From assembly GCA_964611205.1 (NCBI GenBank), contig CAZSZB010000004.1, positions 12,121 through 76,120 of the forward strand: a stretch of DNA of 64,000 nt, read 5' to 3'. This DNA comes from an uncultured Candidatus Saccharibacteria bacterium (GTDB lineage: Bacteria; Patescibacteriota; Minisyncoccia; Phycocordibacterales; UBA918). Below the pieces are notes generated by a model that was not told where the DNA came from, did no database searches, and saw only the letters and a program-made list of their open reading frames with translations. How positions within the stretch are numbered: position 1 is the stretch's first letter; the number at the start of each line of letters is the position of its first letter. The position numbers and the translations under genes were made by a program. Shown here one piece after another: positions 24,700 through 61,499 of this stretch.

Positions 24700-24900
24700 A
24701 CCATGAAAACCCTCACCACCAGCCTCATAAAAATCTCCATCATCCTCACCATCGTCACGGTCGCTTTCGCCGTCAACTACATCCAAGCTGCTTGGTCCGC
24801 TCCACAGAACAACCCACCAGATGGCAACACCCCAGCTCCCATTAACACCGGCAGCGAAGCCCAGGTGAAAGAAGGAGCTTTATCAGTTGATGGATTAGTA
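24700..24900 (+). repeat. Copy 1 of the ~195-bp 5' module (signal peptide plus conserved stalk start)
   Basis: About 90% DNA identity to copies at 25471, 26148, 28146 and 28900. Confidence 0.8.
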
Positions 24901-25398
24901 TCCCACTCTAACAACAACATCTTTGTGGGTGCCGGGGAACAAGAATTTTATGTCAAACCCGGGTTTAAGGGTGAGGTACAGACTAGTGGATATACTACGA
25001 TAGGTACTTCTTCAGGTACTGTGTATACACCTAATGACTTTGAGGTAGGAGGTCAAGTACGAGCTAGTCAGTATTGTGATGAGAATGGGGCTAATTGTTT
25101 AAGTGGTGGGGGGTCATCAGGCGAAAATGGAGTGTTGGGAGGCGGTTGGCCAGTTTTTTTTGTGTGTGAAACACGGAGCGATTTTAAAAGTTTATTCATT
25201 TTATTAAAAATGAACCCATCGACCGTAGTATACGGGACTTTCAATGTGTCCCAAGCAGACAGAACTTCTACTTGGCATTCGTACGTTTATTTTAACAAAT
25301 TAGACAGAAACCCTACAGGATCTGGAGATTATGCCCCGCCGTCATGTGCAAAAAACATGGATACCTTGATCAGTGAAGGAAAGGCCATTTTCAATTAA
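24703..25398 (+). CDS. Paralog A of the island family: shared N-terminal module with a unique C-terminal domain
   Basis: N-terminus MKTL..IKISIIL.IVTVAFAVNYIQAAWSAPQNNPPDGNTPAPIN.G.EAQVKEGALSVDGL. Confidence 0.7.
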   Translation: MKTLTTSLIKISIILTIVTVAFAVNYIQAAWSAPQNNPPDGNTPAPINTGSEAQVKEGALSVDGLVSHSNNNIFVGAGEQEFYVKPGFKGEVQTSGYTTIGTSSGTVYTPNDFEVGGQVRASQYCDENGANCLSGGGSSGENGVLGGGWPVFFVCETRSDFKSLFILLKMNPSTVVYGTFNVSQADRTSTWHSYVYFNKLDRNPTGSGDYAPPSCAKNMDTLISEGKAIFN

Positions 25399-25461
25399 TA
25401 TTTTATTTTTAGCTAAACAGAAATCTTAAGCAAAAATCACAATATAACAGTTCATTTTAAT

Positions 25462-26142
25462 TTGATAACAACCATGAAAACCCTCCCCCACACCATCATA
25501 AAAATCTCCATCATCCTCACCATTGTCACGGTTGCTTTCGCCGTCAACTATCTCTACGCTGCTTGGTCCGCCCCACAGAACAACCCACCAGATGGCAACA
25601 CCCCAGCTCCCATCAACGCTGGTACTGAAGCCCAAGTGAAAGAAGGAGCTTTGTCGGTGGATGGGTTAACTTCGTATGCCAATAACAACATTTTTGTTGG
25701 TGCAGGAGGTCAACAATTCTCTATCAAGCCAGGGTTTAAGGGCAATACACAAACTAGTGACTATACAACAATTGGTGACGCCTCTAGTACAGTCTATATT
25801 TTAGGCAGTTTAGAAGTAGAAAATAGCAACGGTACAGGCAGTGATTATTTGTGGCGCTATGAGAATTTTGATGAAGATATTTACCCTTCTTTTTTTCCAG
25901 GTATTTGTGCTTATGGGTTGAATTGGAAATGTCCCGGCTGGGACAAAGTAATGTGGAAACAACCTCCAGCTAGTAGAGATACTTGTAATCAAAATATTAA
26001 CGGACCATACACATGCGCTGTAAATGAGAGTAAGACATGTAACGATGTAATTAAGGCGTGTGATCATTCGGGCGAACCTTGTGGTTATTCTGAAAGTATA
26101 GTGACTTGTAAAAAGTTAAAAACTCCCTACGTGATAGAATAA
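25462..26142 (+). CDS. Paralog B of the island family, with a Cys-rich C-terminal domain
   Basis: It carries the same N-terminal module; the probable start is MKTLPH at 25474. Confidence 0.7.
   Translation: MITTMKTLPHTIIKISIILTIVTVAFAVNYLYAAWSAPQNNPPDGNTPAPINAGTEAQVKEGALSVDGLTSYANNNIFVGAGGQQFSIKPGFKGNTQTSDYTTIGDASSTVYILGSLEVENSNGTGSDYLWRYENFDEDIYPSFFPGICAYGLNWKCPGWDKVMWKQPPASRDTCNQNINGPYTCAVNESKTCNDVIKACDHSGEPCGYSESIVTCKKLKTPYVIE
25471..25670 (+). repeat. Copy 2 of the 5' module
   Basis: Near-identical DNA. Confidence 0.8.
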
Positions 26143-26147
26143 TAAAT

Positions 26148-26345
26148 ATAATGATAAAAACCCTCCCCCACACCATCATAAAAATTTCCATCATTCTCGG
26201 CATCGTCACGGTAGCTTTCGCCGTCAACTACATCCAAGCTGCTTGGTCCGCCCCACAGAACAACCCACCAGATGGCAACACCCCAGCTCCCATCAACGCT
26301 GGTACTGAAGCTCAAGTGAAAGAGGGAGCTTTGTCGGTGGATGGG
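26148..26345 (+). repeat. Copy 3 of the 5' module
   Basis: Near-identical DNA. Confidence 0.8.
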
Positions 26346-26747
26346 TTGGCTGTTTTCGGAAATATGATTATTTCTGGAAGTACAATTATTGGCAGCACTA
26401 CCTTGCCGTCAAGCGACATTACCTTGGGTGTGGATGGTTCAATAGGAGCCACGTCGTATTTATATACTTCAGATAAGAACTTAAAAACAAACATTAAAAC
26501 AGTAGCTGGTCTTGATACAGTTAAACAGCTGCGCGGAGTATCCTTTAACTGGAAAAAAAATGGTAAGAAATCTGTAGGTCTTATTGCTCAGGAAGTAGAA
26601 GAAGTGTTTCCAGAATTGGTCACCACTACAGACAGTGGACTCAAATATGTTGAGTACGGAAATTTAATTGCGCCACTTATTGAAGCTATTAAGGAACAAC
26701 AAATTCAAATTAATCAGTTACAGGCAGAACTGGATACTTTGAAATAG
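26151..26747 (+). CDS. Paralog C of the island family, with a C-terminal intramolecular-chaperone domain of the phage tail-fibre/endosialidase (peptidase S74) type
   Basis: The C-terminus SDKNLKTNIKT..LRGVSFNWKK..GLIAQEVEEVFPELV..KYVEYGNLIAPLIEAIKEQQ matches the S74 auto-chaperone consensus. Confidence 0.7.
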   Translation: MIKTLPHTIIKISIILGIVTVAFAVNYIQAAWSAPQNNPPDGNTPAPINAGTEAQVKEGALSVDGLAVFGNMIISGSTIIGSTTLPSSDITLGVDGSIGATSYLYTSDKNLKTNIKTVAGLDTVKQLRGVSFNWKKNGKKSVGLIAQEVEEVFPELVTTTDSGLKYVEYGNLIAPLIEAIKEQQIQINQLQAELDTLK

Positions 26748-26750
26748 AAT

Positions 26751-28109
26751 ATGGTGAATAAAATTTTTATAAAAAAATTTATAGTTCCTATCGCTATCTT
26801 TGTTTTAATTTTACCCATTGGCGTATGGGCTTTGGGAATAGTAGAAGAGGGTTTCTTAGTCAATAATTCAGAAGTAGCAATAGATGCCCACGGTACGTGT
26901 AAAAAAGTAAAAGCTAATGATGGCCGAGAATACTTTGTTCCGACCAAAGGTATAGATGAATGGAGTTCCTTCTTAGAAAATACACCAGTTGGGATGACTC
27001 TTTCAGAATGTATTGATTTTTCTGATCAAGTTGAGTTCATTACTAGTTTTAGCTGTCCCAATCCCTATCATTATATGAGATGTGGTTTGGTGGGTGTTAC
27101 TGATTCTATTACTAGTGATGGTGGATATATATATGCTTTTGAAGATGGGTATAACGGATCATATTCTTCACAAAAATTGCACATATACAAATATAATAAA
27201 GATACAAAATCTGTTTCACTTGTGGAGACAATAAAAAATCTTGGTAATTATCCTAAATGGATAGAGAGTTTTGCTATAAACTCCGATGGTAGTCGAATTT
27301 TACTTACTAGAAGACAAGATGTCGCCGGAGGAACATCTTCATTTTATATTTATGCATTTGATGGTGTGAATGCTAATTTACTTTACACAGGTTCTTATAA
27401 GGGAGGATTTAGCCACAACGTTTCTGCTATAAATGAGGATGGTACCGTGGTGGCTTTTCAAGGAAGAATTTATGAAAAAAACGGATCTACCTATGATGAG
27501 GTGTTTGATAATGGATTTCATGGAGCATTAGCATCCAATGACCCACAACAAAGTCACATAGGTGCAAATCTATATCTTGGTGATGATAGTTTTTATCTCT
27601 TTAAAAGAGAGGGGAGGGGAGACATTGTACAAAAACAGTCTGATGGGTCATGGCAAGTTATACAGTCAATTTTACCAAGTGTAAATAACAAATGGCAGGC
27701 TAGTTTTGCTGCTGTTTCTAACGATTATTCACTTATGGCTATTAACTCAAAAAAGGATTCTTCTTCTAATTATAAATCTGATATTTATAAAAAGAATGAG
27801 TCTGGCCCTGGCTACACCAAGTTGGGCACTATCGACTTGGGAGACCTGCAAAGACATACGGTTGAATTTTCAGCTGCCGGAAGATATTTTATTTCAGCTG
27901 GAAAGACCTGGAACATAGACCCTATGTTAGAAGGTGGTTCGCCGATTGTAGTTAAATCAACGGCAAACTGGATGGATTCTTATAGTACTTCTCAGTTTGG
28001 TTATGCTCATGAGAATAGTCTAGGAGATATTGTGGTAGCAAGGCCAGATATAAATGGTGGAGCTAAATTTTCTGGAAAATTTTATATATACAAGCGACTT
28101 CCCAATTAG
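26751..28109 (+). CDS. Secreted protein with beta-propeller-like repeats
   Basis: It has a signal peptide and repeated SDGS/EDGT..V beta-strand motifs. Confidence 0.5.
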   Translation: MVNKIFIKKFIVPIAIFVLILPIGVWALGIVEEGFLVNNSEVAIDAHGTCKKVKANDGREYFVPTKGIDEWSSFLENTPVGMTLSECIDFSDQVEFITSFSCPNPYHYMRCGLVGVTDSITSDGGYIYAFEDGYNGSYSSQKLHIYKYNKDTKSVSLVETIKNLGNYPKWIESFAINSDGSRILLTRRQDVAGGTSSFYIYAFDGVNANLLYTGSYKGGFSHNVSAINEDGTVVAFQGRIYEKNGSTYDEVFDNGFHGALASNDPQQSHIGANLYLGDDSFYLFKREGRGDIVQKQSDGSWQVIQSILPSVNNKWQASFAAVSNDYSLMAINSKKDSSSNYKSDIYKKNESGPGYTKLGTIDLGDLQRHTVEFSAAGRYFISAGKTWNIDPMLEGGSPIVVKSTANWMDSYSTSQFGYAHENSLGDIVVARPDINGGAKFSGKFYIYKRLPN

Positions 28110-28145
28110 GGTATTAGTAATGTTATTATAGAACATATAAATAAA

Positions 28146-28345
28146 ATAATGAAAACCCTCCCCCACACCATCATAAAAATCTCCATCATCCTCGGCATCG
28201 TCACGGTCGCTTTCGCCGTCAACTACATCCAAGCTGCCTGGTCTGCCCCACAGAACAACCCACCAGATGGCAACACCCCAGCTCCCATCAACGCTGGTAC
28301 TGAAGCCTAAGTGAAAGAAGGAGCTTTGTCGGTGGATGGGTTAAC
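28146..28345 (+). repeat. Copy 4 of the 5' module
   Basis: Near-identical DNA apart from the C-to-T change that creates the stop. Confidence 0.8.
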
Positions 28346-28841
28346 TTCGTATGCCAACACTAATATATTCATTGGTGCTAATAATCAAAGTCTCGAAATT
28401 AAACCTGGCTCAAAAGGCTCTGTTAGTGCCGCCGGCTACACTACTCTTGATGTGGTTGGTGCCAACGGCACTCTCTACACTCCTAAAGACTTAGAAGTAG
28501 GAGGTCAGGTACGAGCTGGTCAGTATTGTGATGAGAATGGGGAGAATTGTTTGACTGGCGGGGGGCCATCAGGCGGAACTCCAATCACTTATTCTGTAAC
28601 TGTGAGGTATCCACAGGATAAGAGTGGTAGCAGTGCAACAAAGTTGATCACTTCAAATGCTGGTTTTTTCATGTGTGCCTTGACCACACACCAAACTATA
28701 TATTATGAGACTTTTGGTTCAGATAACTTGGATGAGTATTGCAAAATCACCTATAATGGAAGTTCTGATGATTGGACATTGACTGGTAGAATCGTTGATA
28801 CAGTGCAGGCTCGGATAACATGCACTATGACCTGTCGTTAA
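28149..28841 (+). pseudogene. Paralog D of the island family, interrupted by an in-frame TAA at codon 54
   Basis: At 28308-28310 the codon GAA GCC TAA replaces GAA GCC CAA (EAQ) found in the other copies. The downstream frame continues with VKEGALSVDGL. Confidence 0.6.
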
Positions 28842-28896
28842 TAAATTAATTATGTACCACTGTACATGATAAAATAAAATTACAGTCTAATCTAAA

Positions 28897-29566
28897 GTGA
28901 TAATGAAAACCCTCCCCCACACCATCATAAAAATCTCCATCATCCTCGGCATCGTCACGGTCGCTTTCGCCGTCAACTACATCCAAGCTGCCTGGTCTGC
29001 CCCACAGAACAACCCACCAGATGGCAACACCCCAGCTCCCATCAACGCTGGTACTGAAGCCCAAGTGAAAGAAGGAGCTTTGTCGGTGGATGGGTTAACT
29101 TCGTATGCCAATAACAACATTTTTGTTGGTGCAGGAGGTCAACAATTCTCTATCAAGCCAGGGTTTAAGGGTGGGGTGGAGACTGGAGGGTATGTGACTT
29201 TAGACCCGTCAGGGACAAGTAGTTCTCTTTATGTTCCTGATAATTTGGGGGTGGGAGGGCAGGTGAGAGCCGGTCAGTATTGTAATGAAGATGGTATCGT
29301 GTATTGATGGAGGGAGTGTTATAGGTACACTGTCGACTCATAATTTTACCATAAGGGGTTACGATGGTGAAAGTCAGTCTATGAATGTGGGGGAATATAG
29401 CTTCTGTGCTTTAACACGTGTTGAAATTTTTGATGATGGTGGGGCACGAGGGTGGCCAACGGAAGGATGTTATTTAAGTCGCTCCGGAAATAACTGGACA
29501 ATGACGGCAACTAATAATTACGGAGGATCGCCGGATATTACGAGATGTGAAGCCACTTGTTTTTAA
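28897..29566 (+). pseudogene. Paralog E of the island family, split by a frameshift near 29293-29295
   Basis: The N-terminal module plus ..GGQVRAGQYCNEDG then shifts frame; the next frame reads ..VSCIDGGS.., homologous to NCLTGGG of paralog D. Confidence 0.55.
28900..29100 (+). repeat. Copy 5 of the 5' module
   Basis: Near-identical DNA. Confidence 0.8.
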
Positions 29567-47167: not shown

Positions 47168-47860
47168 TTAAATCAAGCCACCTTCTATATCCAAGAGTTC
47201 ATCTAGATCTTTCTTTTTCTTCTTAGCTATTTCTTGTTCTGCTTTAGGCGCCTTTTTCTTAGTCACTGGCTTTTCTTCTTCTATAAGTTTAGGTCCTTTT
47301 ACGCTCTTCCCAACTCGTTCGATGGTTGTCGTGAAGCCTTTTGGACTTTTCTTTATATCTTCAGCCAACTTATAGTCAGCGGGAATAATTTTTAGGAACC
47401 TTTCCAGTCTTTCTTTTAGGAAAGCTGGTTCCATGTACTTATAGCGACCCCAAAGGAACAAATCCACTTTTACTCGATGTCCTTCGTTAAGCCATTCCGC
47501 AGCTCGTTTGGCTTTGAGATTTTGGTCATGTTCTCCAGTTCCAATTTTAACTTGGACGCTTTTAGTTTCAGTAACATGTGATTTAGCTTTTACTTCACTA
47601 GCTTTACGTTTTGTTTCGTAACGATACTGACCGTAGTCCATTATTTTGGCTACTGGTGGTTTTGCGTTAGGGGAGATTTCAATCAAGTCTAGCTTAGCTT
47701 CTTCGGCAGCTTTTTTAGCTTCGGACACGGTCAGAACTCCCAGGTTTTCACCCTCGGCTCCGATAACTCGTAACTCTTTGGCTCGTATCGCGTCGTTGAT
47801 ACGAGTTTTTGCTTTATAGCTGTATGGTTTAAATGTTTTATTCAGATTTATTGGTCTTAT
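47168..47860 (-). CDS. infC: Translation initiation factor IF-3 with a non-AUG start
   Basis: The ORF-track GTG start at 47728 cuts off the N-domain. The in-frame upstream sequence reads ..KTRINDAIRAKELRVIGAEGENLGVLTVSEA.., which matches the IF3 N-domain, and the frame opens directly after a TAG with ATA/ATC/CTG codons and no ATG. Confidence 0.8.
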   Translation of the reverse strand: MRPINLNKTFKPYSYKAKTRINDAIRAKELRVIGAEGENLGVLTVSEAKKAAEEAKLDLIEISPNAKPPVAKIMDYGQYRYETKRKASEVKAKSHVTETKSVQVKIGTGEHDQNLKAKRAAEWLNEGHRVKVDLFLWGRYKYMEPAFLKERLERFLKIIPADYKLAEDIKKSPKGFTTTIERVGKSVKGPKLIEEEKPVTKKKAPKAEQEIAKKKKKDLDELLDIEGGLI

Positions 47861-50483: not shown

Positions 50484-50664
50484 GGTCACGTATTACTAAG
50501 TATATTATTTCGCTTTGCTCATAATTTACTAAGTGTTCTCGACCCGGCCTCGCCGACAAGCACTCCCTTCGGTCGTCTTGTGTACCGGCTCCGGCTTTCA
50601 ACTCCCCTCATACTCTCACAAACGCAAAGACTCCAAAAGCTTACACTTTTGGAGTCTGCGTATT

Positions 50665-51060
50665 GTGGAGATGGGGGGAGTTGAACCCCCGTCCGAATTG
50701 ATGTGTTAAGGTGCGTCTACAGTGTATAGTCAACTCTTTGGTTTAAAGTAGGTAGCTAAAGATATGACGAGACATTACCTACTCGAGTCCGCAGAATTTC
50801 ACTTCTCTTTGCAGACAAAAAGGGAAGTATATTCTCATGATATTACACCAACATTCTCTTATGAGAACTCAGAAAAGTTGATGTCGTCATCGGCGAGCGA
50901 GTAAAACTACGCTGTCGCGAATGCGAAGTCCTTTGCAGTGAAGAAAGGACTTTTTACGCTATTCTTTGCACGTAAAAGTGACCAAATTTTAACGCAGGTC
51001 TTGGTCAACTGCGACACTGCACACAATAACAGAGCATCAACCGTCGATGCCTGGCATCCC
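50665..51060 (-). ncRNA. ssrA: tmRNA (SsrA), standard one-piece form
   Basis: The 5' GGGGAUGCCAGGCAUCGACGG matches the conserved GGGGnnG..GGAUUCGACGGG. The 3' GGACGGGGGUUCAACUCCCCCCAUCUCCA(A) is a tRNA-like T-arm plus acceptor. The acceptor GGGGAUG/CAUCUCC has a G3-U wobble (the Ala identity element), and CCA is not encoded. A putative tag reading frame GCA AAG GAC UUC GCA UUC GCG ACA GCG UAG follows a CGUAAAAAG..-like leader. Confidence 0.8.
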
Positions 51061-51269
51061 CCAGCCGTGCTTTTTGTAAATATATAGCTAGTTTTAAAAA
51101 TAGCTAAGTCATCTGTTAAGTGCATAAAAAATGTGATTCGAATTACAAAAAGTACGGCTGGGGAAGTATGTGCTGATTTGGATACAGAGAGATGGTGCGC
51201 AACCTGACGAGGATTGTCTGGTTGCGCAAAGGTGTGCGAAGAGCGTCTAGCTAGGACCGCTCCTGATGG

Positions 51270-51681: not shown

Positions 51682-52128
51682 CTAACTTCGCTTGAGAAGG
51701 CGATCTATCATTCGTTTATTATCGCGCTCTTTAATAGTCTCTCGTTTATCTGCCTTCTTTTTACCACGAACAAGAGCTATTTCAAGTTTGATTTTACTCT
51801 TTTTATTATACCACGAAATAGGGACTATTGTCAATCCAGCAGTGTTTAGTTCTTTTCTAAGTTTATTAAGTTCTTTTTGTGATAAAAGTAATTGACGTTC
51901 TCGTTCTGGATTGTAATTGTCAGGAGCATTAGCTTCTTGATATGGTGGAATAGTAGCTCCTTTTAGATAAGCTCCATCATCTTTCAATATTATGTATGAA
52001 CCAACTAAACTAGCCTTACCCTTGCGGATTGATTTTACTTCAGTGCCACTAAGAACGGCTCCCGCTTCAAACGTTTCTAGGATTTCGTAATTAAAGGTGG
52101 CTTTTTTGTTACGGGTGTAAGTTGTCAT
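51682..52128 (-). CDS. smpB: SsrA-binding protein SmpB
   Basis: Motifs ..NKKATFNYEILETFEAG.. and ..GTEVKSIR.. with a KR-rich C-terminal tail. Confidence 0.9.
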   Translation of the reverse strand: MTTYTRNKKATFNYEILETFEAGAVLSGTEVKSIRKGKASLVGSYIILKDDGAYLKGATIPPYQEANAPDNYNPERERQLLLSQKELNKLRKELNTAGLTIVPISWYNKKSKIKLEIALVRGKKKADKRETIKERDNKRMIDRLLKRS

Positions 52129-52253: not shown

Positions 52254-54326
52254 ATGTCTGAACAAGAAAAAAACCAAAATTCTTTTAAAAGAGAGAAAAA
52301 GAATGATAATAAAGGGGTAGAAAATGGTAAAAATAATAAAAAGGGAATGAAGATTCCTAAATTTAAAGAAGTTCGAGTAGCCGGAAGGAAAATGCCTGTT
52401 GGACCGGGTAATTTCTGGAACAACCTACTCTCAACCATTTTGCTGTTGATTTTTATGACAGCCACGTATTCGTATTTGGTTAACAACAATACTAAACCTG
52501 ACGAGATATCAATTTCGCAAATTGTTAGAGAAGTACAAAATGGGGAAGTTAAAGAAATTATTGTTCGTGGTAGTGAGCTTGAAGTTAATTATGTCGACGA
52601 ATCACGCAATAGTGGAAAAGCTAAGAAAGAGACTGATGCAGCTATTTCTGAAACGTTAACTAATTTAGGTGTATCAATTGAACAATTATCGGCGGTCAAA
52701 CTTGATGTCCGTAACCCAACTGGTTTTAATTACTGGCTGTCTAATCTAGCACCATTCTTGTTCCCGTTACTTTTCTTAGGATTAGTGATTTGGTTTTTCA
52801 CTCGTTCTGTTAAAGGAGCTGGTATGCAAGCAATGAGTTTTGGAAGTAGTAAGGCCCGGATGATTGATCCTAACGATCTAAATCAAAAAGTCACATTTAA
52901 AGATGTGGCCGGCGCTAAAGAAGCTAAACAAGAACTTGAAGAAATTGTAGACTTCTTAAAAAATCCAAAAAAGTTTCTTGATATCGGTGCCGAAATCCCA
53001 AAGGGCGTCATGATGATGGGAGCTCCAGGAACTGGTAAGACTTTATTGGCGCGAGCGGTAGCTGGAGAGGCAGGGGTACCATTCTTTTCAATTTCAGGTT
53101 CTGAATTCGTAGAGATGTTTGTTGGTGTTGGAGCGAGTCGAGTACGTGATCTTTTCCAGATGGCAAAAAAGAGTGCCCCGTCAATCATCTTTGTAGATGA
53201 GATTGATGCAGTAGGAAGAGTGCGCGGAACTGGTATAGGTGGTGGTAACGATGAGCGAGAGCAAACACTCAATCAGATCTTAGTGGAGATGGATGGTTTT
53301 GAACCAAACGCAAAAGTGATTGTGATCGCCGCCACTAACCGGCCAGATGTATTGGACCCAGCACTGTTACGCCCTGGTCGTTTTGATAGACGAGTAACTA
53401 TCGATCTTCCAGACCGTGAAGACCGAAAGGCTATACTTGAAGTACATGCACGCAAGAAGCCCTTGCAAGAAGATGTGAATCTAGAAATAATTGCTCAACG
53501 TACTCCTGGTTTTTCTGGGGCAGATCTTTATTCACTTATGAATGAAGCAGCCATCTTGGCCGCTCGAGAAAGTCGTAAAAAAGTTGGCCAGTTCGATTTA
53601 ATTCGTTCAATTGAAAAAGTCATGCTTGGTCCAGAACGAAAAAGTCATGTCTTATCTAAGAAAGAAAGATTGGTAACGGCTTACCATGAAGTAGGGCATG
53701 CCTTGGTTGCTTCAGTACTACCATACGCTGATCCGGTGCAGAAGATTTCTATTATTTCTCGCGGTCGAGCAGCTGGGTACACTCTGAAATTACCTGATGA
53801 AGATCGTAAGATGCAAACTCGAAAAGAGTTTATGGATGACATCGCCATGACTTTAGGAGGTTATGTGACAGAAGAAATAGTGTTCGGAGATTTAACTACT
53901 GGACCAAGTAATGATCTTCAGGTGGTAGCAAACCTAGCTCGTGATATGGTTACCAAATATGGCATGAGTGACATTGGGCCGATTGCTTTAGAAGGAACGG
54001 GAGGTCGCATGATTGGTGGCGGTATGAGCGAAGATCGCGGTTACTCACCACAAGTCGCTAAACAAATTGATGATGAGGTAGCTAAGATTATCGAAGAAGG
54101 AAAAGAAAAAGCTCGTGACATTATCAACTCTCACCGCAAGGCTCTAGATGCGATTTCAGCTAAGTTAGTAGAGCTAGAAACCTTAGAAAGAGAAGAGTAT
54201 GAAGCGTTACTTAAGCAAGAAGGAGTAGTGATAAAAGATGCTTATAGAGAAGAGCGAGAGCTGGAAGAAAAGTTGGGAGATCCTACAAAAGCTTTAGAAA
54301 GTAAAGTAAACAAAGAAAATCTCTAA
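52254..54326 (+). CDS. ftsH: ATP-dependent zinc metalloprotease FtsH
   Basis: AAA motif [30 protein letters not shown] zinc site, and an N-terminal membrane anchor. Confidence 0.95.
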
Positions 54327-54496: not shown

Positions 54497-55792
54497 ATGA
54501 GTAAGGTATCAAATTTATTAAGTATTCAAAAAAACATCACTAGTCTAATGATCTTGTCGGTGATGTTTTTTGGAATGATGGCTTTTGCCAATACTGCTGA
54601 AGCTAATGATGATTCAGCAACTATTGATGAGCTTAAAACCAAAATTGAAGAACTAACTAAACAAATCACTTCATTAAAATCTCAAATCGGAAATAAAAAT
54701 TATGATGTTGTTGACGTAGTTCCCTCTGGTAACTCTTGGAGTGAGATAACTAGATCGGTTAGTAGGGGAGAAAAAGATAACACTAGAGATAGAAATGTTT
54801 ATAAATTACAAAGTTGTCTCACTATCACTGGTGATTATGATGAAGAGGTGACCGGGTTCTTTGGCCCTGCTACCGAGGCAGCTGTTAAGCAATTTCAAGC
54901 TCGAGAAGGAATTGTTTCTACAGGTAACGCGCTAGCCACAGGCTTTGGTCATGTCGGTCCGCGTACCCGTTCTCTTATGAATAACATATGTAAGGACATA
55001 ACAAAATCATCAATTCAAACTGAATCTACTGAAGCAGTTAGTCAATCAAATAGGTGGGAAAAATCAGACCCGAATCATAAGAGGTCTGATAAAGAAGTAC
55101 AAAGAGAGTTGGGGGAAAATAAACCGTTAGAAAAACGTTCAGACTATTCAAGAGTAATCGATTCATTTTTAGGTAGTCCTTCTAAAGCAATTCAATCAGA
55201 ATCTGTTAAAAAATATGCTGCTCCAGCAAAAAAGAAAACTGACGTACCAGTAGAATCAAATGACTCCGCTGAGCAATCATCAACTAGTTCAGATCAGGAT
55301 CATAGCTCGAGACCAGCTGTTAAGAGTGACAATACTCTTTGTTCATCTGTTCAATACACATCAAGCGGAAAGTACAGGATAGTTTGTGAAGATAATTCAT
55401 CTACTTTTACACAGCGAAAGTCTATAAGTGATATTGAAACTTCTAGTCAAGGTATCCCTGCTAAAGGTGGTGCTGATGCAAAAACAACGGCTGAATTGAA
55501 ATCTGACATCGAATTGATGTTTGAAAAAGTTGGTGCCTTAGAGCGTCGTGCTAAAAGTCTAAATATCAACAGGTCTTGGTTTTCTGATACCAGAACAGAA
55601 GTTACTAACTCTGGTTCAAGTAGCACAAGTCCTGCTCAATATAAAGGACAAGGACGATGGAATTCAGGGACACCAAGTTCTAAAGGAGGTCAGGTCAGAG
55701 GAGTATCTACTTCTAATCCAATGGCCGAACTAGCAGAAAAATTTACTGAACTCGGAATAGCCTTGTCTGAATTAGAAGAAACATTGAAATAA
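54497..55792 (+). CDS. Secreted coiled-coil protein with a peptidoglycan-binding domain (PG_binding_1-like)
   Basis: It has a signal/anchor sequence, a coiled coil, the VYKLQSCL..GDYDEEVTGFFGPATEAAVKQFQAREGI motif, and a Ser-rich tail. Confidence 0.6.
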   Translation: MSKVSNLLSIQKNITSLMILSVMFFGMMAFANTAEANDDSATIDELKTKIEELTKQITSLKSQIGNKNYDVVDVVPSGNSWSEITRSVSRGEKDNTRDRNVYKLQSCLTITGDYDEEVTGFFGPATEAAVKQFQAREGIVSTGNALATGFGHVGPRTRSLMNNICKDITKSSIQTESTEAVSQSNRWEKSDPNHKRSDKEVQRELGENKPLEKRSDYSRVIDSFLGSPSKAIQSESVKKYAAPAKKKTDVPVESNDSAEQSSTSSDQDHSSRPAVKSDNTLCSSVQYTSSGKYRIVCEDNSSTFTQRKSISDIETSSQGIPAKGGADAKTTAELKSDIELMFEKVGALERRAKSLNINRSWFSDTRTEVTNSGSSSTSPAQYKGQGRWNSGTPSSKGGQVRGVSTSNPMAELAEKFTELGIALSELEETLK

Positions 55793-55809
55793 AACTTTAA
55801 TAGATAAAA

Positions 55810-55848
55810 ATAAAAACGACCTAGTGAACTAGGTCGTTTTTATTTTAT
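55810..55848 (+). terminator. Intrinsic terminator
   Basis: Stem AACGACCTAGT, loop gaa, stem CTAGGTCGTT, then TTTTATTTT. Confidence 0.7.
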
Positions 55849-55925: not shown

Positions 55926-55998
55926 GTCCGCCGGCTTGGACTCGAACCAAGGACCACGGAGGTATAAGCTCCGCGCTCTACCAACTGAGCTACCGGCG
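55926..55998 (-). tRNA. tRNA with anticodon UAU (reads AUA; tRNA-Ile(UAU) type)
   Basis: Read on the minus strand: CCGCCGG-UA-GCUC-AGUUGGUA-GAGC-G-CGGAG-CUUAUAC-CUCCG-UGGUC-CUUGG-UUCGAGU-CCAAG-CCGGCGG-A. All stems are perfect, U33 and A37 are present, and CCA is not encoded. Confidence 0.75.
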
Positions 55999-56173
55999 GA
56001 CAAAATATTTTTTAAATTTATACAATTCTTGATTTTGTCTCATCTAAAAGCTCAAATAGAGCTATTCGAATCGAACAATAAGCATTGATTCCCAACTGTG
56101 CTACTGGAGCATCAGTTGGTGCACAAAACTATACCTTGTGGCAAAATTTTTTGCAAAAATTTTGCCACCTACA

Positions 56174-56902
56174 CTAATAACCCTTAAAGGGATCACTAAC
56201 TATTTTTTTGATTTCTATTTGCTTACATTTCTTACGTAAAGCCTTGATCATATTTGGTGATCCAGATATATAATAGTCAGCTTCATTGCCATAAATATCC
56301 CGTTGCGCTTCGAGTGCTTGGTTGACCTCCTCCGGAGTATTGGTGTAGATGATTCTTAGTCGCTCAGTTAAGCTGGTCCAATTATCTAGGTCAGACTTAT
56401 AAGGATGATTTTCTTGAGCAGAAAAGATAAGTGTTAAATCTGTTTCTGGTAGGTGTCCATGACTTATTTCATAAGCTAGAGACCGGAAAGGGGTAATCCC
56501 GATACCGCCGGCAATACCAACTATTTTTTGTGTTTCTCCACTGGCATGGAATTCACCAAAAGGCCCACGTATTTTTATTTGTTCACCAGGATTTAGATCC
56601 ATTAATTTCTTCTTAAAATCACTAGGTTCTTTTGGAAAAGATGTCCCGATTCTAATCACACCTTCGTGAGGAGAAGAGGCAATAGAAAAAGCCCGCCACG
56701 TTTTACCCTGAACATCTTTGTCTGGTAGAGTAAAAATCGCGTGTTGACCAGCCTGCCAAGAAAAAGGTTTTGGCATAGAAAAAATAAAAGAAAAGACTCC
56801 TGGAGTCTCTTCTATTTTTTCTTCAAATATAAGTTCACGTACTTTTAATACTCCACTATATGAAACGGGGTGGATTATCGCCCGAAAAAATAAATTGTAC
56901 AT
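56174..56902 (-). CDS. Ferredoxin-NADP reductase-like FAD/NAD(P)-binding oxidoreductase
   Basis: RAFSIAS (FAD-binding RxYS-type) and GGIGITP (NAD-binding) motifs. Confidence 0.65.
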   Translation of the reverse strand: MYNLFFRAIIHPVSYSGVLKVRELIFEEKIEETPGVFSFIFSMPKPFSWQAGQHAIFTLPDKDVQGKTWRAFSIASSPHEGVIRIGTSFPKEPSDFKKKLMDLNPGEQIKIRGPFGEFHASGETQKIVGIAGGIGITPFRSLAYEISHGHLPETDLTLIFSAQENHPYKSDLDNWTSLTERLRIIYTNTPEEVNQALEAQRDIYGNEADYYISGSPNMIKALRKKCKQIEIKKIVSDPFKGY

Positions 56903-56920
56903 AACAAGTATGATAACAGA

Positions 56921-59101
56921 CTACTCCATATGTAGCTCAGCTTTAATACCGGCTACCCTGTGGGCAATTAGAGGGTATGTTTGTGTAAAGTTTGAAGATT
57001 TTTCTACTAGTTTATGAGCTTCGTTACGAGCCGCTTCTACTAGTTTAAGATTTTTGATGGCTTCCATTCCAAGATCGGTCAAGCCAGATTGTTTGGCTCC
57101 GTAGAGCTCTCCAGAACCTCTGAACTGGAGGTCGTGTTCAGCTAATTCAAAGCCGTTCTTGGCTGTCACTAGAGCCTTAAGACGATCTCTTGTTTTCTCA
57201 CTCTTACTCTCAGTCACGGCAAAACAGTAAGGTTGGTGTGTACCACGAATGACACGACCACGTAGTTGGTGCAACTGTGATAGTCCAAATCGCTCAGCTC
57301 CTTCAATAATTATGTTGGTAGCGTTTGGTATATTGACACCCACCTCTACCACTGAAGTTGCTACGAGGATGTCTATTTTATGATCAGAGAACTCTTTCAT
57401 GACTTTATCTTTTTCACTGGGTGTCATCTTGCCGTGTAGTAAGCCAATCTTATATTCGGGGAAGACATCTTTTTCTAACCTCTCTGCTTCAGCCTTAACA
57501 CTTTTAAGGCGCAGAGCTGTGGCTTTATCAGGATCAGGTTCATCGATACGAGGGCATATGACGTAGGCTTGCCGGCCGGTACTTAACTCCTCTCGCACAT
57601 GGTCATACATTTCTTTCTGTTGGCTAGGTCCAATGATTTTAGTGATGATAGTTTTTCGTCCGCTAGGCATTTCATCTAGTAGTGTTATATCTAGGTCTCC
57701 ATATATGGTTAAGGCTAGAGTCCGTGGAATAGGAGTGGCTGTCATAGAAAGTAGGTGTGGCATTCGGGAGTCTTTTTTAGCGAGTTGTTTGCGCTGATTG
57801 GTACCAAAGCGGTGTTGTTCGTCGATAATTACATAAGCCAAGTGTTTAAATTCTACACTTTTATAGATGAGAGAATGAGTACCAATCAGAATCGGAATTT
57901 CACCATTTTTTACCCATTTTAGTAATTGTGCTTTGGATATTTTAGTTGGTTTAGTAGGATCGACTTTGCTCGGAAATTTCATACAACCACTGCCGGTAAT
58001 CAAACCAATTTGGATAGGTAAGTGATGAAAATATTCAATGAAACTTTCGAAGTGTTGTTTGGCAAGAATCTCGGTCGGTGCCATGTAGCCAACTTGAAGG
58101 TTCCCGTATTCGAGCTTTTTGCCGGCCGCCTCCGGCGGCCGGCTCGTGGCTACCGCATAAGCAGTTGTCGCAGCGACCGCTGTTTTGCCGCTACCAACAT
58201 CGCCTTCAAGCAGTCTACTCATGGCGTGACTTCCAGAGAAGTCTTGAAGAATTTCAGTAATAGATTTGTCTTGGCTTTTGGTTAGCTGAAAGGGGAAACG
58301 CTCGGTAAACTCTCTTAAGTGTTTGTCGTCGGTTTTAAACTGATAGGTAGTGGCAGCATTAGCGGCGGCACGATTTAAAGCATTTTGGATTTGGATATAA
58401 AAAACTTCCTCGAAGGCAAACCGCTTCCTCGCACTTTTGGCGTGGTCAGCTTTTTTGGGAGAGTGTATCCACACTAGAGCAGTCTTTAGTTCTGGTAGAT
58501 TATATTTCTCTAGCATGTCTAAGGGTAGAGGGTCATTTAAGGTTTCTAAGATTCCTTTTTCAAAACATTTCAAAACTGTATGGTAGAGCCATTTGCTAGT
58601 GATGCCTTTGGTTTCCCGATAAACAGGATATAGGGTGTCATCGGCTTCGGCGTCAGTCCCAACAAAGAGTGAATCGTGACGATCGATTGGTAGGGAGTCC
58701 AGCTTCTCGACTTCAGGGTTAGCAATATATAACTTGTCACCACTGCCGGTGACTTTTCCCGCTATCTTAACGTACATTCCATCACTATACATTTTTGCTA
58801 GATAGGGCTGGTTAAACCACATTATCTTTATCTTGGCCGAACCGTCCTCAATATAGCCTTCAGCAATCGGTTTCCGACTCTTCCAGGCTTTACGGCTCCT
58901 GAGGCCTGATAACTGACCATAGACAACGGCTTCCTGACCTTTCTCTAGTCCGGCAACGGATTGAACATCACTAATATCTTCATAACGAGCAGGTAGATAA
59001 TAGAGTAGGTTCTCTACCGTCTTAATACCTAAACGTTTGAGAGCTTTTTGGTGGGGTAAATCTATTTTAAAGTGACTGGTCAGTAAATCGGTGGGTTTCA
59101 T
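56921..59101 (-). CDS. recG: ATP-dependent DNA helicase RecG
   Basis: 726 aa with GDVGSGKTAVA and DEQHRFG helicase motifs and an N-terminal wedge domain. Confidence 0.9.
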   Translation of the reverse strand: MKPTDLLTSHFKIDLPHQKALKRLGIKTVENLLYYLPARYEDISDVQSVAGLEKGQEAVVYGQLSGLRSRKAWKSRKPIAEGYIEDGSAKIKIMWFNQPYLAKMYSDGMYVKIAGKVTGSGDKLYIANPEVEKLDSLPIDRHDSLFVGTDAEADDTLYPVYRETKGITSKWLYHTVLKCFEKGILETLNDPLPLDMLEKYNLPELKTALVWIHSPKKADHAKSARKRFAFEEVFYIQIQNALNRAAANAATTYQFKTDDKHLREFTERFPFQLTKSQDKSITEILQDFSGSHAMSRLLEGDVGSGKTAVAATTAYAVATSRPPEAAGKKLEYGNLQVGYMAPTEILAKQHFESFIEYFHHLPIQIGLITGSGCMKFPSKVDPTKPTKISKAQLLKWVKNGEIPILIGTHSLIYKSVEFKHLAYVIIDEQHRFGTNQRKQLAKKDSRMPHLLSMTATPIPRTLALTIYGDLDITLLDEMPSGRKTIITKIIGPSQQKEMYDHVREELSTGRQAYVICPRIDEPDPDKATALRLKSVKAEAERLEKDVFPEYKIGLLHGKMTPSEKDKVMKEFSDHKIDILVATSVVEVGVNIPNATNIIIEGAERFGLSQLHQLRGRVIRGTHQPYCFAVTESKSEKTRDRLKALVTAKNGFELAEHDLQFRGSGELYGAKQSGLTDLGMEAIKNLKLVEAARNEAHKLVEKSSNFTQTYPLIAHRVAGIKAELHME

Positions 59102-61408: not shown

Positions 61409-61495
61409 GGAGAGTTGGCTGAGTGGTCGAAAGCGCCTCACTGCTAACGAGGTAAGGTGTAAAAGCCTTCAAGGGTTCGAATCCCTTACTCTCCG
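61409..61495 (+). tRNA. tRNA-Ser (anticodon GCU), class II with a long variable arm
   Basis: GGAGAGU acceptor stem, anticodon loop CUGCUAA, a 19-nt variable arm, T-arm AAGGG-UUCGAAU-CCCUU, and discriminator G. Confidence 0.8.
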
Positions 61496-61499
61496 CGAG

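Follow-up and report, generated by a model that had tools for sequence, protein, structure and literature searches.

TilS, the enzyme that modifies tRNA-Ile2(CAU), is regarded as nearly universal, essential and specific to bacteria. In 2013, nine species from three clades were listed as tilS-less bacteria that carry a tRNA-Ile with a genomically encoded UAU anticodon, and a few more were found to have both systems (PMC3575796). In Mycoplasma mobile, tRNAIle2(UAU) has an unmodified U34; IleRS uses Arg865 to recognize it, and rejection of AUG is a property of the cognate ribosome (Taniguchi et al. 2013, PMC3575796). In Bifidobacterium and Neorickettsia, the tRNA-Ile(UAU), designated "Ile3", occurs with an IleRS2 of eukaryote/archaeal type and without tilS (PMC3575796; PMC8450103). 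Both tilS and a TAT tRNA gene are present in Lactobacillus casei/plantarum, Cyanothece PCC 7424 and Ferrimonas balearica, for which a transitional state has been proposed (PMC3575796). As for surveys, tRNADB-CE holds a TAT tRNA gene in 19 species (PMC4013482), and tRNAscan-SE 2.0 reported 17 bacterial genomes (Bifidobacterium, Mycoplasma and Neorickettsia) with Ile3(UAU) instead of Ile2(CAU) (PMC8450103). Moreover, a tilS deletion in Bacillus subtilis can be rescued by a G34-to-U34 change in tRNAIle1, in which U34 is unmodified (Fabret 2011; Kohrer 2014, PMC3919564); the suppressor tRNA shows strong binding to AUA and weak binding to AUG, and the cells grow almost normally (PMC3919564).

Here we analyzed a tRNA-Ile(UAU) gene in a stretch of 64,000 nucleotides (hereafter the window) from an uncultured member of the Patescibacteria (CPR), and compared it with these systems. 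It shares with that of M. mobile a genome-encoded UAU for AUA in a bacterium with a small, reduced genome and frequent AUA. However, M. mobile belongs to the Mollicutes, which are unrelated to Patescibacteria, and its tilS absence, U34 state, IleRS Arg865 and AUG rejection have been demonstrated; the CPR tRNA also differs by a C1-G72/C2-G71 acceptor end and an invariant C38. As in Bifidobacterium and Neorickettsia, the UAU tRNA is a fixed trait of an entire group of species and no peculiarity of single strains, but the known Ile3(UAU) set of the tRNAscan-SE survey comprises 17 genomes, while the CPR clade alone adds at least 61 species genomes. The clade would match the bacteria with both systems if tilS lies elsewhere in the genome; those cases, however, are individual species or strains (PMC3575796), and the CPR tRNA is found in every informative genome. 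The B. subtilis suppressor indicates that, on bacterial ribosomes, an unmodified UAU is efficient on AUA and poor on AUG, and can stand in for TilS; this suppressor, however, is a laboratory mutant of tRNAIle1(GAU), and the CPR tRNA may stem from Ile1, Ile2 or another tRNA.

The tRNAIle2(CAU)/TilS system itself is similar in its AUA-only task and in the tRNA body, with C4-G69/C5-G68 in most members of the CPR family, and CAU tRNAs that adjoin tilS in metagenome contigs have the same CU-N-AUAC loop with C38; the difference is the wobble base 34, which is T in the DNA of the CPR gene. Outside Bacteria, tRNA-Ile3(UAU) of Nanoarchaeum equitans and Korarchaeum cryptofilum likewise has an encoded UAU instead of the modified-C system, and Nanoarchaeum is an ultra-small episymbiont, like CPR. 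The eukaryotic tRNA-Ile(UAU), which also replaces the modified-C system, has a pseudouridine-A-pseudouridine anticodon made by intron-directed pseudouridylation. These tRNAs come from other domains, whose synthetases and modification enzymes differ from the bacterial ones.

The tRNA gene and its surroundings

The gene, its parts and its neighbors are listed in Table 1. The 73-nt gene reads, from 5' to 3', CCGCCGG, UA, GCUC, AGUUGGUA, GAGC, G, CGGAG, CUUAUAC and CUCCG, followed by UGGUC, CUUGG, UUCGAGU, CCAAG, CCGGCGG and A, so that its stems measure 7 bp (acceptor), 4 bp (D), 5 bp (anticodon) and 5 bp (T), with a variable loop of 5 nt. Position 1 corresponds to 55999 and the discriminator A73 to 55927. 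CCA is not encoded; the base after A73 is a C (55926), which is included in the ARAGORN call. An earlier note, made from the letters of the window, had described exactly these arms (7-bp acceptor, GCUC/GAGC, CGGAG/CUCCG and CUUGG/CCAAG) and the loop CUUAUAC, and all of them are found; its span of 55926-55998 located the tRNA properly and missed the 5' end by one base. Its central claim, a tRNA with a genomically encoded UAU, is borne out by two scanners. ARAGORN calls a tRNA-Ile with the anticodon tat at position 34, and the Rfam tRNA model RF00005, which agrees on the position of the anticodon, is matched over its full length (1-71/71) with 69.6 bits (gathering score 29) and E = 4e-13. A single-sequence MFE fold did not recover the cloverleaf, a frequent outcome for tRNAs that does not count against the comparative data.

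Table 1. Coordinates of the tRNA-Ile(UAU) gene, its parts and neighboring features in the window, and of the 3' tRNA duplications on the contigs of four relatives
Feature	Position	Strand	Basis or remark
ftsH (synteny anchor)	52254-54326	+	Pfam
Secreted protein with peptidoglycan-binding domain	54497-55792	+	
Bidirectional terminator-like hairpin, 18 pairs, T-runs on both strands	55807-55846		about 80 nt past the tRNA 3' end
tRNA-Ile(UAU) gene, 73 nt	55999->55927	minus	ARAGORN, Rfam, sequence, covariation
Acceptor-end strands of tRNA-Ile(UAU)	55993-55999 with 55928-55934		C1-G72/C2-G71
Anticodon loop C32-U-U-A-U-A-C38 (CTTATAC)	55968-55962	minus	
Anticodon T34 A35 T36	55966-55964	minus	reads ATA on the + strand
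Sigma-70-like promoter candidate TTGCAA-17-TATAGT	56157-56128	minus	consensus scan, 9/12 matches
FAD/NAD-binding oxidoreductase gene, directly upstream of the tRNA	56174-56902	minus	Pfam
recG, upstream of the oxidoreductase gene	56921-59101	minus	Pfam
tRNA-Ser(GCU)	61409-61496		
3' tRNA duplication, direct orientation	L014 8444-8670		copy miscalled tRNA-Gly(ccc) by ARAGORN
3' tRNA duplication, direct orientation	L047 9642-9934		
3' tRNA duplication, direct orientation	L052 15788-16110		
3' tRNA duplication, direct orientation	L080 7639-7770		

Several features are of the Ile type, including A37, A73, U12-A23 and C4-G69. The acceptor end with C1-G72/C2-G71, in contrast, is atypical for bacterial elongator tRNAs, tRNA-Ile among them; the tRNA-Ser(GCU) of the same window begins with G1. 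This acceptor end, together with a C38 in place of the A38 that is used by E. coli IleRS, could speak for a pseudogene, for another identity (for example, Met charging with AUA recoding) or for a mis-assigned anticodon. The full-length model match and the agreement of ARAGORN and Rfam on the anticodon position argue against this explanation, as do the conservation and codon data given below, and we consider it very improbable.

Within the window the tRNA-Ile(UAU) gene is single-copy, and the only two other RNA genes are the tRNA-Ser(GCU) and a tmRNA. The recG/oxidoreductase/tRNA arrangement is repeated in other assemblies of the same organism, and proteins identical to those of the window were found in several metagenome assemblies, in contigs of up to 224 kb. 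The candidate promoter is located about 129 nt upstream of position 1 of the tRNA, within the 174 nt that separate the tRNA from the oxidoreductase gene, and use of this promoter and co-transcription with recG and the oxidoreductase gene are equally possible. The terminator-like hairpin is also situated 3' of the convergent gene for the peptidoglycan-binding protein.

Other parts of the window encode type IV pilus genes, many pilin-like paralogues, a ribosomal protein cluster, smpB, ftsH and recG. The tmRNA (50663-51061, minus strand; tag peptide AKNSVKSPFFTAKDFAFATA; 116.9 bits in Rfam) is located near smpB (51682-52128, minus strand), which lies directly upstream of ftsH and is divergent from it. 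A run of paralogous genes (24703-29307, plus strand) sits between fusA and a downstream tuf and breaks the usual order of the str operon; their N-termini are near-identical (MKTLPHTIIKISIIL(T/G)IVTVAFAVNY(I/L)(Q/Y)AAWSAPQNNPP), which suggests pilin-like or secreted proteins.

In infC (47168-47860, minus strand), the stretch from the preceding in-frame stop to the conserved N-terminal motif RINDAIRAKELRVIG contains no ATG, GTG or TTG. Past the stop, the frame opens with the codons ATA AGA CCA ATA AAT CTG AAT AAA, and initiation at the earliest canonical start, the GTG at 47728, would cut into the conserved N-terminal domain. The start of infC is thus likely to be non-canonical, of the ATA or CTG type; that of E. 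coli infC is AUU. The earlier note had connected this start with the tRNA-Ile(UAU), but such a start would be read by the initiator tRNA and not by an elongator.

Conservation of the tRNA among relatives

We collected relatives through FtsH and obtained 80 species-representative GTDB genomes, in which the longest tblastn segment of FtsH is 76-89% identical. Almost all are MAGs, and their labels include Kaiserbacteria, Nomurabacteria, Paceibacteria/Parcubacteria, Minisyncoccia, Patescibacteria group and "uncultured Candidatus Saccharibacteria"; three of the 80 (L009, L019 and L052) bear non-CPR names. By the labels of these FtsH relatives, the organism is placed among uncultured Patescibacteria/CPR, in the Paceibacteria branch (Kaiserbacteria/Nomurabacteria-like).

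ARAGORN found a tRNA-Ile(tat) in the ftsH loci of 61 of the 80 relatives, in all 61 cases downstream of ftsH, at a distance of 110-8897 nt (1.6 kb in the window). One of these loci, L042, belongs to the complete chromosome CP060229.1 of Ca. Nomurabacteria HK-STAS-PATE-25. In the other 19 loci the sequence ends 2-5008 nt past ftsH, so none of them counts as an informative absence, and the tRNA is present in every informative genome among these relatives. Position 34 is T in the window gene and in all 61 orthologues, where a tRNA-Ile2(CAU) would have C34; therefore, TilS has no cytidine to modify in this tRNA.

The 61 genes gave 47 distinct ARAGORN sequences, and after CCA trimming, which merged two pairs, and addition of the window's own gene, 46 sequences were aligned. 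On the standard cloverleaf, 99.8% of the 966 pair cells are paired, and double-sided (compensatory) changes occur in 16 of the 21 stem pairs (153 cells). None of 500 shuffles reached the observed pairing and covariation, and when the 3' partners were slid by 1-3 columns as a control, pairing was only 30-47%. The invariant positions comprise T8, A9, A14, G18 and G19; G10, C11, U12 and C13 of the D stem, with the pairs C11-G24 and U12-A23; G53-T54-T55-C56 and A58; and the whole loop C32-U33-U34-A35-U36-A37-C38, A73 and the following C74. C4-G69 is present in 34 of the 46 sequences, and pair 29-41 varies. C1-G72 and C2-G71 are found in 45 of the 46, with L021 as the exception. We read the covariation of the stems and the invariance of the loop, A73 and C74 as functional constraint: the pattern is the one that an expressed, functionally constrained tRNA would leave, and not that of a pseudogene.

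The gene of L021 (12840-12916) shares the tRNA body and loop, but it has a G1-C72 stem (GGGCGCA/UGCGCCC) and an encoded CCA; a foreign copy may have taken the place of the original gene, or this form may be ancestral. Encoded CCA is rare in the family, being present besides in L032 and L053 and absent from nearly all others.

We also considered that the tRNA might be a recent passenger of a phage or integrative element that boosts AUA reading and stands outside the core translation set. Phage tRNA arrays often include a tRNA-Ile(TAT), for example in contigs L155 and L180, and in four relatives a 36-41-nt 3' part of the tRNA is duplicated 58-250 nt away (Table 1), in the manner of att scars. 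These duplications look like scars of integration and excision at the tRNA-Ile(UAU) gene, but such scars mark the tRNA as an integration target and not as cargo. Furthermore, the synteny with ftsH is kept in 61 species, the tRNA sequences diverge in step with their hosts, and the neighbors are housekeeping genes. We rejected a mobile-element origin, which seems highly unlikely: no integrase or phage gene was found among the neighbors in the window, the phage collection gave no match, and neither half of the tRNA is repeated in the window.

AUA usage and the search for the lysidine system

Codons were counted in 64 non-overlapping ORFs of the window (17,368 codons). ATA occurs 343 times, or 19.75 per 1000 codons, and accounts for 27% of the Ile codons, in agreement with the many AUA codons expected in the earlier note; the genome, which that note had called AT-rich, proves only moderately so, with about 40% GC in the window. 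AUA is used at 10.6 per 1000 in genes for ribosomal proteins and elongation factors versus 22.0 per 1000 elsewhere, as is typical of a minor codon that is served by a single-copy tRNA.

We then aligned 11 proteins of the window with their orthologues in the related loci (up to 80). ATA codons of the window correspond to ATT in 28.6%, ATC in 20.2% and ATA in 10.7% of cases, and to Val in 18%, Leu in 9% and ATG in 5.8%; by residue, 59.6% are I, 18% V, 9% L and 5.8% M. ATG codons of the window align to ATG in 73%, and the profile of ATA resembles those of ATT and ATC instead. Since this substitution profile is Ile-like and not Met-like, AUA is taken to be isoleucine here, as in the standard code. 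In a codon-reassignment screen of more than 250,000 genomes, including CPR, AUA is nowhere mentioned in the main text (PMC8629427). Together with the Rfam score and the strong purifying selection with covariation, the Ile-like profile led us to reject a pseudogene or AUA recoding.

For the lysidine system, the part of the organism that was covered amounts to about 84 kb, namely the 64-kb window and 10 kb on each side, the flanks being reached via exact matches to window proteins in the same organism. In the window, in the 10-kb flanks and in the relatives' 80 ftsH loci, a motif scan found no ORF with the PP-loop SGGxDS, and neither a gene with Pfam ATP_bind_3 (PF01171) nor a CAU tRNA was found; the motif scan, which also took in three further loci (L001-L003), was negative there too. 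No tilS adjoins ftsH in the window or in the 80 loci. Commonly, tilS and hpt are the upstream neighbors of ftsH; neither is at that position in the window. An IleRS gene (ileS) was likewise not found in the window, the flanks or the relatives' loci, where no ORF of at least 400 aa has a KMSKS motif.

An unrelated metagenome contig, L144 (3293-6260), shows the order tRNA-fMet, tRNA(CAU), tilS, ftsH. CAU tRNAs with the loop CUCAUAC (C38) adjoin tilS in this contig and also in L091, L092, L101, L138 and L169, and they probably represent tRNA-Ile2 genes whose modifying enzyme is encoded beside them. The C38 loop would fit a descent of the tRNA-Ile(UAU) from Ile2, but says no more than that. As tilS stands next to ftsH in L144, the ftsH neighborhood is a place where tilS can occur; that of the clade, with a UAU tRNA and no tilS, is suggestive of TilS loss without being decisive.

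We further searched metagenomes for a CAU sibling by the same D arm and the loop CTCATAC. None of the at least 119 CAU tRNAs listed, which come from unrelated bacteria and phage arrays, has the CC...GG-A-C ends. A tRNA-Arg(UCU) in L090 (648-722) has a similar acceptor, CCGUCUG...CAGGCGG-A-C, without CCA; its contig encodes MeaB-like and B12-binding proteins and an SDR and is by eye not CPR-like, and the likeness is probably coincidental.

The main alternative is that the tRNA-Ile(UAU) is functional but redundant, with tilS and tRNA-Ile2(CAU) kept and the LAU and UAU anticodons sharing AUA. Almost all bacteria have TilS, the coexistence of tilS with a TAT tRNA is documented (PMC3575796), and with only about 84 kb of the organism covered, tilS and tRNA-Ile2(CAU) may well lie elsewhere. 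Against redundancy, the tRNA looks indispensable, as no informative locus is without it, its loop is invariant and its stems change only by compensation; tilS is absent from beside ftsH in 80 species, though it lies directly upstream of ftsH in L144; and none of the 80 loci has a CAU tRNA. None of these points is decisive, and we give redundancy somewhat less than an even chance. That the tRNA-Ile(UAU) would have replaced the TilS/tRNA-Ile2(CAU) system in the clade, and not merely duplicated it, we rate at about even, or very slightly better. The wider reading is more tentative and somewhat short of an even bet: a large branch of the CPR at class level, the Paceibacteria related to Kaiserbacteria and Nomurabacteria, would be without TilS and tRNA-Ile2(CAU) and would read AUA solely by its tRNA-Ile(UAU), with the C1-G72/C2-G71 acceptor end and the invariant C32/C38 loop as lineage-specific features.

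Proposed decoding and its significance

From the comparative evidence, we infer with good confidence that the tRNA-Ile(UAU) serves as a functional elongator and the standing AUA decoder in this Paceibacteria (Patescibacteria/CPR) lineage. By general tRNA biology and the two bacterial precedents, decoding may proceed as follows. First, the transcript would be trimmed, CCA would be supplied by a CCA-adding enzyme, and A37 would probably be made t6A. Second, the IleRS of the clade would accept U34, either as an archaeal/eukaryote-like IleRS2 or as an IleRS1 with a basic residue, Arg or Lys, at the position that contacts the wobble base, which corresponds to Trp905 in E. coli and Arg865 in M. mobile. 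Third, U34, probably unmodified, would pair with the A of AUA. Misreading of AUG would be kept low by the weak U-G pairing of an unmodified U34 and by competition from tRNA-Met, and it may be further limited by the tRNA body (the invariant C32/C38) and the ribosome.

According to Nureki and co-workers in 1994, the determinants of E. coli IleRS are reportedly the anticodon, t6A37, A38, A73, C4-G69, U12-A23 and C29-G41. Of these, A73 and U12-A23 never vary in the CPR family, A37 is kept and C4-G69 is found in the 34 sequences mentioned above; A38 is not kept, being replaced by the invariant C38, nor is pair 29-41. Given this C38 and the variable 29-41 pair, either the IleRS of the clade must read the tRNA somewhat differently, or C32/C38 and C1-G72/C2-G71 may serve decoding accuracy or identity. 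For C1-G72/C2-G71, a part in IleRS identity, in RNase P processing or in another step is conceivable. In glycine tRNAs, a C32 beside an unmodified U34 widens wobble (discussed in PMC3919564), and this effect, if applicable here, would raise AUG misreading. The earlier note had held that U34 must be modified to avoid AUG; because both studied bacterial UAU tRNAs, those of M. mobile and the B. subtilis suppressor, carry an unmodified U34 (PMC3575796, PMC3919564), this requirement is unsupported.

An encoded UAU tRNA-Ile is already known in bacteria, and the present one adds no new mechanism, but it has clean comparative support. A large Patescibacteria lineage with such a tRNA appears not to have been reported previously, and our full-text literature searches found no paper that joins Patescibacteria/CPR with tilS, lysidine or a UAU tRNA-Ile. 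With a UAU tRNA-Ile fixed in at least 61 species of an abundant uncultured lineage, the set of known cases is greatly enlarged. If TilS is present, the gene would be an ordinary tRNA annotation, albeit with unusually clean comparative support. If TilS is absent, annotation pipelines and estimates of completeness would be skewed for these genomes where they count on TilS or tRNA-Ile2, and many independent CPR sequences would be available in which to find the features of the tRNA body, IleRS and ribosome that bar AUG. Should a clade-wide loss of TilS be true, the UAU tRNA gene would occupy the ftsH neighborhood, which is the site of tilS in L144; the lineage would represent an independent (fourth or later) origin of the UAU decoding solution, and it would be by far the largest natural TilS-independent radiation of bacteria.
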